From Eledone cirrhosa (taxonomy: Eukaryota), in assembly GCA_964016885.1 (NCBI GenBank), contig OZ024743.1:120466001-120530000 (forward strand): a stretch of 64,000 nucleotides of DNA, written 5' to 3'. Below are positions 20,604 to 58,299 of the stretch, piece after piece. How positions within the stretch are numbered: position 1 is the first letter of the stretch; each line of letters opens with the position of its first letter. Both the position numbers and the translations under genes were made by a program. Below the pieces are notes generated by a model. That model saw nothing but the letters and a program-made list of their open reading frames with translations. It did not search any database and was not told the DNA's origin.

Positions 20604-20769
20604 TAGGAACAAGTAAGACCCCGACGGCTGAGCTCAGAATTAGCCGTCGAAACGGCTTGAGCTCAGCCGTCGGGGTCTTACTTGTTCCTATTACCCACTC
20701 TACTACCCTAAGTATTGAGTACTTTGGTGCGTTATGGTCCACCTGGTTCCTTACCACATTTCCTTCGTT
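20604..20769 (+). mobile_element. Family A fold-back element (Penelope pLTR-like) in (TA)n
   Basis: Inverted arms taggaacaagtaagaccccgacggctgagctc / gagctcagccgtcggggtcttacttgttccta, plus an ~80-nt tail ending ccacatttccttcgt-(TA)n. Confidence 0.88.
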
Positions 20770-20799
20770 ATATATATATATATAAATATTCAAACTTAG

Positions 20800-21595
20800 T
20801 GGCCATATACTCATCATTCAACGGTTAGTCATTCTAGGCCTGTCTTTTATAGGTGGCCTTATTTACAGTATTATTCAAGCACCATGTCACCTTTCGTCTG
20901 GCTGGTACCGTCTCTCTTTGTTTGCTCTTCACTGAACCTTTGTTTTGCAACGATCTCTTCCATCTCCACACATTCCCTCTTCCACTATCTTATGTCTCTC
21001 CGTCCGTCTGAAATCATTAATCACTAATCTAATAGTAGAATCCTCCCCAGAAAAATGACTTTGTATTCACAATCATCTGTCTATCCTATCTCTTAATGAG
21101 TATGTAGAAGATCGAGTTATTGATTGGGTTCCTGAAGTTAGTGTTGACGATGGTTAGGTAGTTTGAATCACAGGTCTCTTAAAACTTTGTTTCCTCTTCA
21201 TTCGTTGAACCATATCCATAGCTACAATGTACTATATCATGGTGCTGCCCAGTTAAAGTCACCAGCCACTATAATGAAGCCGCTGTCCTTCATTATGGAG
21301 GTGGCCTGCAACTGTACGTAATAGAAACTGTCCTTTTGCTCAGTGGTCAGTCTGGATTGTGGCATGTAAGCAAAAATAAGAGTTGCAGTTTTGTTACCCA
21401 CGACTAGTTAAAACTTAATTATTTCATTGCATACTTTCACTACTTAAACTACTTCATCCATTTCTGTGTCAACAGTCTGCCCATTTCATCTAACATTTCA
21501 TTGTTTCTCACCCAGAAGAACTCGTACTTCTGTTCTTTGCCTATGTAAAATCTGGCTGAAAATGCCCTCTTTTGCACACAGGACACATCTCAACT
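20800..21595 (-). mobile_element. RTE LINE apurinic-like endonuclease fragment (decayed)
   Basis: Minus strand: DVSCVQ..KYEFFW..TLIFAYMPQ..QKDSFY..FIIVAGDFN..GYGSTNEE..LTIVNTNFR, then KVTWW. Contains stops. Confidence 0.8.
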
Positions 21596-22649
21596 CCGTC
21601 CTCTTTGTATCTCTCTAGCTTTCTCTCCACTCTCTCTCTCCATATATATATATATATATATATACATAGGTGTGTGTTTATATATGTAAACACACAGATA
21701 TGTATATACATATAGTGTATATCTATAAAGATAAATATATATACAATGGGCTTAAAAATCGATTTCTTTTGATTGGAAACAAGTTAAAATTTTGTATAGA
21801 AAGTTGTAAAAATGTATTAAGCCACAATCTCTTGCAGTGATTTTATCGACTACAGAGAAATTGAATACAAAGCGGATTCTAACAAAAAACAAAAAAGCCA
21901 GAGAAGGCACCCTACCATTTTTCTATTATCATCCAACAGAACGTTTTCAAAAGTAAAACGAATTTTACATTCGAAATGGCCTGTTGTATGAATCAGATAA
22001 CTTTGAATAAAACACGCATATGTGGGCATTTGTACAAATGCATAGACATATACTATACATGTGAAAATTCGACACACAGATATATTTATAACTATTTGAA
22101 AGGTTCCTAAAAACTGATGCTTAATTCTGATTTCATAGCGTAAAGCGTTATATCAACGCTTGATTAATTCCCCTGAATTGGTTGCATAGAAATCGCAGAT
22201 TACTTTTACTAATATCTGGTACCTAAATCTACTTGTCTCAGTTCACCTACCTAAGAATAAAGTGTGTTGCTGATGACACAATGAAAAGCAATCTATGATT
22301 TTAAAATCATATTTCCGTCTGTACATTTTGAACTACTATTTGCCAAAGTAAACCATAAGTGGCGTTAGGATTTTACTATTTCACTAATAATACAATATCT
22401 CATTTCGATATACACATATATATGCATACAAACAGTCTTCATATAAACACACACGCACATACACACGCACACTCACACACACATATACATACTAGATATT
22501 AGATGCTTCAAATGTATAATGTTTCTCTTTAAACTTCGTTTGAAGAAAAAAATTGTGCTTTTGTCGCATTCGGTTTTAGAAAAAATAGTTGAAATAAATA
22601 AATCAACGCCTACCTACATTACATGTTTACGTGTTAGACTAACAATAAC

Positions 22650-22855
22650 AATGGTTTCTAATTTAAGCACAAGGCTAGCAATTTGAAAGGAGGGGAAAAT
22701 ATATAAAATCGTCTTCAGTATTTGACTAGTACATTATTTGAGCAACCCTGATAGGATGAAAAGAAAAGTCGACCTTGGCGAGATTTGAATCAATAATAAT
22801 AGTAATGGTTTTTAATTTGGCACAAGGTCAGAAACTTTGAGAGAGGAAACCCTTG
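22650..22855 (-). mobile_element. Two 5'-truncated SINE pieces
   Basis: 'ggtttctaatttaagcacaaggctagcaattt..ggatgaaaagaaaagtcgaccttggcgagatttgaa' and a second tail at 22805. Confidence 0.65.
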
Positions 22856-55339: not shown

Positions 55340-56179
55340 ATATAATAAAAGGCAGAGAATTTGCAGAATTGTTATGTCATCGGATAGAATGCTTCGCCGT
55401 ATTTGTTACACTTCCCTGCAATCTCAGTTCAAATCCTGTCAAGGTCAAATATACCATTTATCCTTTTGCACAGATCAGCGAGTGATTGGTTGGTCATTGG
55501 TGAAATTATTAGATCATTGGACGGGGTTATTTGTATCTATTCAGTTCTTTGGGCTCTAATGGTAACAATATAAAAAATAATTTAGATGACCATCTTGCTG
55601 TTATTTACCATTACATTTTGAAAGTAATGTCTTTTCTAATGCTTAACTCCTTTTATTGGCCGTTTCATACTGCACATTGAAAGACATACACACATGCACA
55701 CACACGCTACACATACATGCGTACACAGAGACACACACATATATATATGTATATATATATATATATATATATATATATATATATATATATATGTATGAAC
55801 ATATGTGAAAAGATACGCATACATAAATATATGCATGCATATGTAAATATGCATGCATACATACAAACATACACGCACGCACACACAGCCACACCCATAT
55901 ATATATATATATATATATATATATATATATATATATATATATATACGCACACACACACATACACACATACACACACACATATATATATATATATATATAT
56001 ATATATATATATATTTCCACATACATATAAATATTTACACGTACATACACGCACACACACGCACACACACGCACATGCACACACACACACAAACACACAC
56101 ACACACACACACACACACACACATATATATATATATATACACATGCCCCTTCCCTTTTATATAGATTTACCGGAAGAAA

Positions 56180-57400
56180 TAATATGATCTAGGAGTGCAT
56201 TAATGCGTTAGTCCTTAAGGGTATATTCCTATATCTACGGATTTTATGCATGCCTACTAAGCTGCATATGGGTATCTGTAGGATATATTTCACCAGAAGA
56301 TAAGTGGGATTAGATGCCAAATTTAATGGTTGTTTAAAAACAGTGTTTCAGTTTTGGGGGATTTCTGCCTAATTTGCGAGGAAAGGAAAGTGGCTAGATA
56401 CGGCTTATTGTGGGTGAAATATTTACTGTAAATTAAAGTTGTCTATGCTGGAGTGGTTGACATTAAATAAGAACAAATGAAAGTTTAGAGTCGTTGATTA
56501 ACCCATTCTATTGGCAAAGTAACTCTTAAACTGTGCTAGTTATTAAGGTTTAGATGTACATGGATTTGAAAGAAAGCATTCTATTTAAGTGGGGGAGGGG
56601 GTAATGAAATAATAGAGCTAATAAAGTTAGTGATAAAGCAATGTTATAAGATAGATTGTTTTGTTTTTAGATTTTAAAATCTGGCTAACGTCCTATTTTT
56701 GGAGGATGAAATTAGTGGTTAAAAGTTTGATTTAATTTCCATACCATATATGGTAGTCTTGACTATTTATCCTTCTAAGGTATTAATCGATAGTATTTAA
56801 TTTATTGAAGATAATTTAAATTAAGTGTATGGTCTAATAGGAATGTAATCTTAGGGAACCTTTTCGTGAAAGTAGTGTATCTTCCATGTTATTTAGGAGC
56901 AGATTTATAAGTTACCTATGAAGAAATATCAGTTTAAATATCAGTATTTAATTGTTGAAGAGGATCTTGAGATAAACTTAAGTATGAAGTTGATATGCAT
57001 CTTTGTTACCAATCTAGGTTTTATCAAAAGCGAATACTTTGTAATTGATTTTATAAGGAATGATGCTAACTTTTAGGGGCCAGATATAACTCAATAAAGA
57101 GTTTTTCTTGTAGGATTGCGGAATCAATGGATGTGTTCTTTAAATCTACTTTTAAATATTATAGCTATTAAATTTATGTAAGACACATGTTATTAGATTT
57201 AGTATATACGGTAGTCAATTAGTTTCTGTTAGAGACCAAAAGTCGATATTAAATATAGTTACAAGAGTAAAAATTAGATTTAATATCGTCTTACTAAGTA
57301 GAAAGTTTGGAACGGTCACTTCCAGCTAACATATATTCGCAGTTATTATTAGAGCGGTATCACAGTGTGGCATCCTTTTGGTTTAGTCGTGTGTAATATT
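56180..57400 (-). mobile_element. Possible very old Penelope-like RT remnant
   Basis: Minus-strand scraps DYIPIRP (~56840) and MLSF-KSMY (~56560) in the expected order. Heavily decayed. Confidence 0.3.
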
Positions 57401-58129
57401 TATGCATAGGGCGGGGGTGAATGTTTATGTCATAATTTAGATAAAATTTTACGACCAGGGACAGAGATTTGCAGGTTGAATGATGGATAGAATCTGACCA
57501 CTCTAGATGAAGGGGAAAAATACTGATAAAACAAGTATATAAAAATTAGTAAAAAAAAAAATTAGAAATGTCAACTAGAAAGAAAAAGTGCAACTAGAAG
57601 AAAACATAACAATTCCAAAAAACTATTCAGAAACTAAAATTATGAAATAAACAAATTTTTAATATTTTTTAATTCATTTACAAATATAAGAAAAAATGTA
57701 AGCAAGCACATTTACACTCATATACCCATACAAACACGCATACACATACATATATGCCCATTGTTATATTAATAAAATTACTACTCTCAGTGTAATGTAT
57801 ACTTACATACGCACAGAGTAACATGACAGCAGATAGAAATACTTGAAAATACTTAACAACATAAAAATGGCGAGCCGAAATGTCAGTTGCAACAATGTTT
57901 TGTTTGAAGAGATTGCAAATTGCAGCGGAAATATTTATGAGAAATAAATACAACAGAAATGAAAGAAATCACTGAGTATTTTACAATTTTCACGACTTAA
58001 AACTACTAAAAATCCAATAGACACCATCTCTCTCTCTCTCTCTCTCTCTCTCTCTCTCTCTCTCTCTCTCTCTCTCTCTCTCTCTCTCTCTCTCTCTCTC
58101 TCATTATATATATATATATATATTTATAT

Positions 58130-58299
58130 AACGAAGGAAATGTGGTAAGGAACCAGGTGGACCATAACGCACCAAAGTACTCAATACTTAGGGTAGTAGA
58201 GTGGGTAATAGGAACGAGTAGGACCCCGACGGCTAATTCTGTCCAGAATTAGCCGTCGAAACGGCTTGAGCTCAGCCGTCGGGGTCCTACTCGTTCCTA
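58130..58299 (-). mobile_element. Family A element with an internal deletion in one arm
   Basis: Tail on the left. The deletion lies between two gacggct direct repeats. Confidence 0.88.

Follow-up and report, generated by a model that had tools for sequence, protein, structure and literature searches.

Penelope-like elements (PLEs) of the Hydra clade, e.g. Hydra-1_Obim and Penelope-1_HM, are described as having just one open reading frame (ORF) of ~700 amino acids (aa) with the reverse transcriptase (RT) motifs RW[KR], DKT and YRDD and a CxCx5C linker, followed by a C-terminal GIY-YIG-type domain with CxxC and CxH motifs around its E and N residues; they target (TA)n and carry a hammerhead ribozyme in the 3′ end (PMC8557442). 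An inverted, truncated pseudo-long terminal repeat (pLTR) plus a tail, situated in microsatellites, is a layout already known from the same source. These features, of which the GIY-YIG-type domain is a putative one, are shared by the family described here, which was found in a 64,000-nt stretch of the Eledone cirrhosa genome (termed the window: assembly GCA_964016885.1, contig OZ024743.1, positions 120,466,001–120,530,000, forward strand). The window has about a dozen short palindromic elements (termed minis). They represent the right-hand end of a Hydra-clade PLE placed head to head in (TA)n; the PLE origin is almost certain.

How the inverted copies of PLEs are formed and whether their hammerheads cut in vivo are stated as open questions in three sources (PMC8557442, PMC3846280, PMC11167929). 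The thousands of junctions present in this genome give base-level evidence on both, together with an intact ORF. A published octopus repeat annotation lists Penelope and MITE (miniature inverted-repeat transposable element) families; the available part of its text mentions no hammerheads or palindromes, and its library may hold this family (PMC13282606). Minis of this type would be filed as TA-MITEs or as microRNA-like hairpins.

Structure of the minis

An earlier note on the window, made from the sequence alone, described an arm with the order GAAA-CGGC..GAGCTC..GCCG-TC-GGGGT, folded into a palindrome with a one-sided tail and flanked by (TA)n. The arm, the palindrome and the flanks are as described, and all 12 copies that it listed are present at those positions. 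The tail, which the note gave as ~80 nt and usual, is 79 nt long; copies 50053 and 53292 have no full tail.

Sixty-three inverted pairs were assembled from the window, from an evenly spaced genome sample and from 40 stretches chosen from two exact-pattern genome searches. The tail is on exactly one arm in 60 of the 63, and there are two fixed outer ends, 79 nt apart. The inner junctions are variable. In a set of 72 elements, which excludes the 30 loci of the first genome search (biased to long arms), there are 62 different junctions and the commonest is found four times. Of 69 junctions, 27 show microhomology, 27 a filler sequence and 15 are blunt, and loops of 0–1 nt are frequent at the centres. 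Fillers often copy adjacent arm sequence, a property that resembles joining by polymerase theta. The reach of the two arms (n = 67) is equal in 15 elements; the tailed arm is longer in 30 and the tail-less arm in 22, in 11 of these by 3 nt or more.

Unique junctions, a single tail and the fact that either arm can be the longer one point to two cDNAs joined at each insertion, and not to a self-copying MITE. A single hairpin-primed strand cannot yield the class with a longer tail-less arm unless a deletion followed. Thus the minis are very probably made per insertion by twin synthesis. The earlier note had left two options, a non-coding mobilised family or a stereotyped short insertion product. 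The latter is retained; the former does not fit the 62 distinct junctions, the longer tail-less arms or the continuity with PLE untranslated regions (UTRs) and ORF shown below.

Parent element

The first genome search, with window copy 46248 as query, yielded 30 loci. Three of these run on upstream without folding back and one runs on past the tail. Searches with these extensions show that copies extend upstream via a 1.1-kb 3′ UTR into an ORF end, and downstream via a 92-nt 5′ UTR into an ATG. The parent unit is ~3.55 kb and consists of pLTR, 5′ UTR, a 724-aa ORF, 1.1-kb 3′ UTR and pLTR. Several of 20 larger stretches hold pLTR-ORF-pLTR units, often with an inverted 5′ copy; loci L095, L105 and L107 display the order inverted pLTR, pLTR, ORF, pLTR. 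This continuity with the 5′ UTR/ORF and 3′ UTR bears out the Penelope origin that the earlier note had proposed. The note had also suggested a search for a parent with the 5′ half of the ribozyme and an RT/GIY-YIG ORF. Parent and ORF were found, but the ribozyme core is not CTGANGA; it reads (U/C)UGAnAA.

Locus L105 has the unbroken 724-aa ORF, and 13 ORF copies show a mean difference of 4.9%. The L105 protein has 1,922 relatives with ~40% identity. Hydra-clade motifs are conserved at 93–100% in 116 homologues, except for position 3 of RWK. This site is RWR in L105 (positions 37–39), with K in 70% of the homologues, and we count it as the RWK feature of the Hydra clade. The change of DKG to DKT, a Hydra feature, is present as D117 K118 T119, and the RT motifs YRDD and FDI are also present. 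The Cys motifs of the clade are found as C572-C574-C580 (linker), C670-C673 and C698-H700; no CCHH was seen when the sequence was read by eye. GIY-YIG-type residues (Y593, Y606/G608, R617, E676, N689) are conserved at 99–100% in the 116 homologues, one of which bears PF01541. The predicted model of the L105 protein (pLDDT 93) gave telomerase RTs as its top four fold matches in the PDB (E-values 1e-7 to 5e-7, TM about 0.3), with no GIY-YIG structure among the whole-protein fold matches listed (the domain was not searched alone). The protein has no Pfam match, and no PDB match by sequence or profile search.

A perfect TATATATA directly follows 57 of 67 tallied pLTR ends and 57 of 63 tail ends (69 elements, several sets of loci), which agrees with (TA)n insertion in the Hydra clade. 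The parent departs from two typical, not strict, Hydra features, i.e. a canonical hammerhead (its core is U3-A8 or C3·A8) and a length under 3 kb. Contigs of one sequencing run of unrecorded type show much greater depth across the mini region than across the start of the ORF, together with loose (TA)n ends at the two predicted end points; this run may derive from the source sample and is not independent.

Other PLE sequences are present in the window. Positions 23993–25400 hold a frameshifted PLE remnant with RT, Cys linker and GIY-YIG-like motifs, Neptune-like as judged by eye. As the parent it was rejected: one 209-aa piece is 28% identical over 60 aa. A short tblastn match to the C-terminal part of the Hydra-type homologue P0050 is at positions 57035–57183 on the minus strand (E-value = 2e-5); going by this match, it is a remnant of another Hydra-type family. 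Pfam searches with six window ORFs gave no match.

Variant hammerhead in the long copies

The arm is the 3′ half of a type I hammerhead, as first recognised from the window, and the 5′ core is in no window copy, again as the note had it. In the long copies the order is helix I (ACCCC/GGGGU), (U/C)UGAnAA-G, helix II (56 nt, including an inner hairpin), GAAA, helix III (5 bp, closed by the palindromic loop), and GUC. The type I core elements 3–9, G12A13A14, A15.1-U16.1 and H17 are all present in the parent pLTR. The parent pLTR holds the 5′ half that the minis lack, as a variant type I core, and self-cleavage is predicted. The variant core, UUGAnAA/CUGAnAA, explains why a search for CUGANGA misses the 5′ half of the parent; it also escapes Rfam.

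A census of the core was made by hand from the first 100 of 3,655 matches to a pattern that left positions 7 and 8 free, the inverted arms of one insertion being counted twice. Position 8 is A in all 100; position 3 is T in 65, C in 34 and A in one, and position 7 can be any base. With A8, the 3–8 pair is intact for U3 and broken for C3. In the subfamily closest to most window copies, exact arms with the 5′ core number 953 for C3·A8 and 657 for U3-A8. G7 accompanies C3 in 31 of 34 cases; either a shift of register or common descent may lie behind this association. For the subfamily of window copy 51737, a genome search with a 5′-core pattern gave 0 matches.

Ribozyme helix cells are paired in 90.6% of cases, compared with 29–49% for slid controls. 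The hammerhead fold lies 0–0.7 kcal from the minimum free energy in four U3 copies and 2.8 kcal from it in one C3 copy; folding z-scores are −1.0 to −1.4.

Other hammerhead-like sequences were also seen. A second fold-back family, at window positions 44508–44614, has a complete CUGAUGA type I hammerhead per arm, with the fold just upstream of the core; this copy abuts mini 44628, and relatives are near 37550–37660, 40520–40610, 48090–48160 and 60200–60280. A CUGACGA hammerhead-like motif at 26183–26250 belongs to another repeat family, with copies in L144, L184, L213 and L236. About nine more repeat families with canonical CUGAnGA motifs are present in the fetched DNA (L003, L025, L031, L034, L103, L107, L144, L152, L229 and others).

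A stop at an initiator-like motif

The earlier note placed the inversion at or downstream of the stem II site. It is in fact inside the 3′ strand of helix II, which is long, and at a sharp point. The spacing of inverted pairs among the first 100 matches to an arm 24-mer is bimodal: 23 are at 15–53 nt, none at 54–437 nt and 5–6 at 438–5521 nt (counted by hand from coordinates). One exact pattern finds 12,999 elements with a centre of 3–33 nt, compared with the 3,655 arms with a 5′ core, and exact arms of the 3′ half number 26,633 versus 953 plus 657 with the 5′ core. In 27 of 69 elements the longer arm extends to 11–12 nt upstream of the helix II GCCG, the commonest reach (maximum 19), and there stops on the G or A of TTAGT/TCAGT; most of this set had been chosen for having a centre no longer than 33 nt. 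The stop motif alternates between TTAGT and TCAGT across subfamilies.

The cDNA letter after the stop was recorded for 100 arms, from 50 of 3,918 elements with both arms reaching the A. It is A in 63, G in 12 (templated in some subfamilies), and C in 20 and T in 5, both untemplated. The excess of C over T has p = 0.004 per arm (hand count). After the A four bases upstream there are 8 C versus 1 A. Cleavage-site ends (see below) show no such excess of C (3 C, 8 T and 12 A; p = 0.006 by Fisher's test). RT adds an extra C opposite a cap; a literature search turned up no source for a cap-derived extra G in the RNA sense.

TTAGT/TCAGT resembles the initiator of TATA-less retroelement promoters. An internal promoter with initiator and downstream promoter element (DPE) is reported for Penelope of D. 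virilis (PMC2377424), and an initiator-like motif for pLTRs of A. vaga (PMC3846280). Counting the stop A as +1 puts GUC at +41, the end of the pLTR at +61, that of the tail at +140 and the ATG at +232. If RT began at +61 and +140 on the 5′ end of the mRNA itself, it would produce exactly the arms observed. That the main-class arms are strong-stop copies of the 5′ end of a capped mRNA is therefore a fairly probable, if not a firm, reading. A splice acceptor at the stop was considered and dropped; the arms often include the AG and upstream T's, and there is no constant upstream exon.

A stop at GUC|GGGG

A rare class, ~2% of the main class, has its centre in the GUC|GGGG zone (241 exact elements of one subtype; 245 with another pattern). 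The predicted self-cleavage site is GUC|GGGG. Hand counts of the longer arm in the first 50 of the 241 elements show 26 ending exactly at GGGG, 5 ambiguous (0 to −3), 10 shorter by 2–5 nt and 9 further upstream. An untemplated filler is right after GGGG in 15 of the 26 exact ends. These minis may well be copies of the 3′ product of ribozyme self-cleavage and, if so, they are a fossil record of an RNA cutting itself in an animal.

Proposed mechanism and alternatives

Taken as a whole, the explanation that we favour, with some confidence, is that minis are made anew at each insertion by the joining of two short cDNAs run off the likely capped 5′ end of the element's mRNA. Within helix II of the upstream pLTR, transcription would start at the initiator-like TYAGT and also at another A that lies four bases upstream. 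The mRNA would then begin with the 3′ half of the ribozyme only and so would not be cleaved in cis there. The endonuclease would nick both (TA)n strands and RT would start internally at +61 and +140. When begun in the 5′ copy of this region, both cDNAs would run off the RNA 5′ end as strong-stop products, and their 3′ ends would be joined by microhomology or filler synthesis to form a palindrome that has a single tail. Read-through RNA would give rise to long copies when RT starts in its downstream pLTR/tail, and the rare minis stopping at GUC|GGGG would be copied from the 3′ product of self-cleavage. A tentative extension, possible but somewhat doubtful, is that the palindromes, in their tens of thousands, constitute a fossil map of the 5′ ends of a Penelope RNA: the capped start is in helix II, so that only the downstream pLTR self-cleaves, the rare class records cleavage in vivo, including that of C3·A8, and twin priming occurs from both nicks.

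Several observations weigh against this explanation. The element is in no RNA run searched, and start site, cap and cleavage are putative. No DPE-like motif was seen by eye at +28 to +32, judged against the consensus. The extra C counted per element (14 versus 5) is not significant; templated fillers confound the signal, and several cases can be read as microhomology. Rfam searches with three parent loci gave no hammerhead at the gathering score, and among these close copies the helices of the ribozyme show no significant covariation (one double change; 37 of 500 shuffles as high). We had predicted a U3-A8 origin for the cleavage-site minis, and this was not borne out. From the 241-element search 15 loci were fetched and 14 scored; 13 of the 14 have the C3·A8 tail marker, which is present in 23 of 23 C3·A8 long copies and in 1 of 11 U3 copies of that subtype. 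So the core either cuts in spite of its mismatch, or the stop at GGGG arises from some other cause. The two arms of an element have their subfamily markers in common in 59 of 59 and 61 of 62 cases, which is the expectation under a hairpin model; for twin synthesis it would require a single RNA, or a single expressed locus, as the source of both cDNAs. Later deletions at the centre could also make the tail-less arm seem longer.

The same parent and the same origin at each insertion would hold if the inner stop were an arrest of RT, or a host-nuclease cut, in the A/U-rich apex of helix II. All five natural copies that were folded have a predicted inner hairpin, and the stop is in its 3′ strand; several copies show A/T-run fillers past the stop, and the start site is a putative one. 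By our own reasoning, however, structural arrest is expected at the base of the helix and not in mid-strand; in addition, the extra C is seen after two A's spaced four bases apart, not at cleavage-site ends, and the motif alternates between two initiator-like forms. We regard this alternative as rather unlikely. Less probable still is a single cDNA that folds back and primes itself, or self-primes on an antisense template as proposed for A. vaga PLEs (PMC3846280). Such a strand would account for the nearly constant sharing of subfamily markers between arms, for an arm difference of 3.1% within elements as against 9.9% between elements (59 pairs) and for the 30 of 67 elements with a longer tailed arm. 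It does not account for the 22 with a longer tail-less arm, since no tail can be gained by copying a first strand that lacks one; the 0–1-nt loops, and window copy 27534, with arms of two subtypes, also argue against it, as does the extension of both strands from two start sites in vitro (PMC11167929).

In a third alternative, a non-autonomous family with SINE- or MITE-like masters, the whole palindrome would be transcribed and copied by the PLE enzyme. The very high copy number, the recurring junctions and a 3-unit tandem of a 248-bp ORF-less unit (L020) are in its favour; yet 62 of the 72 junctions are distinct, the recurring ones are explained by microhomology of 1–2 nt, and the same geometry is found in at least five subfamily haplotypes that match long copies, so that we think it very improbable. 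A TA-specific MITE of a DDE transposon would likewise be palindromic, ~120–240 bp and inserted in TA. This can practically be discounted, although no transposase library was searched: the ends are not mirror images, one end being 79 nt past its mirror in 60 of 63 pairs, the sequence is continuous with the PLE ORF and 3′ UTR, and long copies have the hammerhead core nucleotides. The earlier warning against a TA-MITE label thus holds, as the parent is a PLE and the ends are asymmetric.

Copies in the window and in the genome

Searching the window by blastn with one copy as query gives 13 loci (including the older 11290 and 41425, with 27287 and 27534 merged); the parent pLTR as query also gives 13. 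The copies are 83–100% identical to the L105 pLTR and fall into several subfamilies:

11290–11400, minus strand: old, diverged relative; 71% to the query copy.
20604–20769, plus strand: mini with a short inverted arm joined at the helix III palindrome, an arm with the 3′ half hammerhead and the 79-nt tail; (TA)n on both sides; 94% to L105:1841-1980.
27287–27521, minus strand: mini with the tail at left; several templated duplications of arm sequence in the centre.
27534–27744, plus strand: mini with an A21 filler past the stop point; arms differ at two subfamily-diagnostic sites.
41425–41490, plus strand: tail-only fragment.
41730–41850, plus strand: mini of the cleavage-site class, both arms ending at GGGG after GUC; right arm from 41753, 4-nt filler at 41749–41752; the tail bears the marker of the U3-A8 sublineage.
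44628–44821, minus strand: mini with the commonest junction (1-nt microhomology); the tail-less arm extends further 5′ than the tailed arm.
46248–46464, minus strand: mini with both arms reaching the initiator-like TTAGT; A/T-run centre.
50052–50124, without strand: short mini of a diverged subfamily, most of the tail lost.
50178–50382, plus strand: mini of the second (AAATAGCC / CTCTGCC) subfamily with templated filler; 88% to L105.
51737–51915, minus strand: mini of a diverged subfamily; tailed arm with an internal deletion.
53010–53190, minus strand: older relative; 83% over 41 nt.
53292–53404, without strand: mini of the second subfamily; neither arm tailed.
58130–58300, minus strand: mini in which helix III is gone from the tailed arm via a jump between two GCCGTC repeats.

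The density of one copy per 5 kb given earlier is that of a local hotspot, and the genome-wide density is about tenfold lower. Flanking DNA has 7 loci per 100 kb (parent pLTR as query). Forty evenly spaced 10-kb stretches have 9 loci per 400 kb, about 1 per 44 kb (11 matches, two pairs of which were merged as the arms of one long copy each). This extrapolates to ~67,000 loci in the genome, with a Poisson range of 31,000–128,000. The genome is 3.0 Gb and microsatellite-rich; TA tracts number 226 in the 64-kb window versus 724 in the 400-kb sample. The arm 24-mer found 26,633 times has a reversed control with 0 occurrences, thus the copies are not due to chance. General repeat-finding on the window is dominated by microsatellites. 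An Rfam search of the window (E-value up to 1) gave no hammerhead among the best 150 of 406 matches, which are weak, spurious hairpin matches only.

At L020:1497-2135 (G000:C27:9168356-) there is a head-to-tail array of the 248-bp unit, made up of two complete units plus a third that stops at the tail, with an inverted arm ahead of the array. The unit runs from the putative start site through the tail and 5′ UTR to just past the ATG. This suggests that the template was a small circle or was re-primed. At G000:C20:16253131-16313024 the element's 5′ UTR occurs four times on one strand, at spacings of ~15 and 30 kb, probably owing to segmental tandem duplication. In the window, positions 8522–10636 hold decayed reading frames of what we take, from their motifs, to be an RTE-like LINE; Pfam searches with two pieces of this region gave no match.

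Comparison with known systems

Minus-strand strong-stop DNA of retroviruses and LTR elements is a short cDNA that is primed near the RNA 5′ end, runs off the cap and is moved to the 3′ end. In the family described here two such products would instead be integrated as a dead end. With Penelope of D. virilis and Pen2-6 of A. vaga the family shares a head-to-head, inverted 5′-truncated copy, a tail at one end and an initiator-like motif in the pLTR. The tail of canonical PLE insertions is 30–40 nt, however, compared with 79 nt here, and most copies here are reduced to 60 + 140 nt with a sharp stop (PMC3846280).

In vitro, the anole Poseidon PAc uses two internal RT starts that set the tail; each of the two strands undergoes nicking and extension, mainly with uncleaved RNA as template (PMC11167929). 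The two fixed outer ends of the minis match these two starts and the two-strand extension, and may be their counterpart. The Poseidon start sites are in the ORF and its ribozyme is a canonical C3-G8, unlike those of the present family. In the Poseidon study no RNA-seq read was found to end at the cleavage site, in contrast to the class of genomic copies that does so in the present family.

The Cercyon PLEs of Schistosoma share the U3-A8 core covariation, type I topology, pLTR location and palindromic loop III; their minimal hammerheads differ from the present ribozyme, which has a 5-bp helix III, a far longer helix II and an abundant C3·A8 lineage (PMC4209133). Non-LTR retrozymes are, like the minis, short, non-coding, derived from a PLE pLTR and related to hammerheads (10.64898/2026.07.22.740005). 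Retrozymes are direct tandems with a complete ribozyme per unit, whereas minis are inverted pairs with half a ribozyme, and the L020 tandem is also without the 5′ core.

Titles-level literature searches, mostly without subscription papers, turned up no published account of the two stops. The closest relatives, the Hydra-clade PLEs, are generally under 3 kb, compared with ~3.55 kb here, and the cores given for them in the File S2 sheet are ctga-n-ga with a helix II of 3–7 bp, whereas the present core is (t/c)tga-n-aa and helix II has 56 nt; the hammerhead of Hydra-1_Obim is a different one and, in a comparison by eye, so is its protein (PMC8557442). Judged by this comparison, what is new is a family of Hydra type whose long-helix ribozyme is U3-A8/C3·A8, with two inner stops that are sharp to the base and point to a start site within the ribozyme and to cleavage in vivo.

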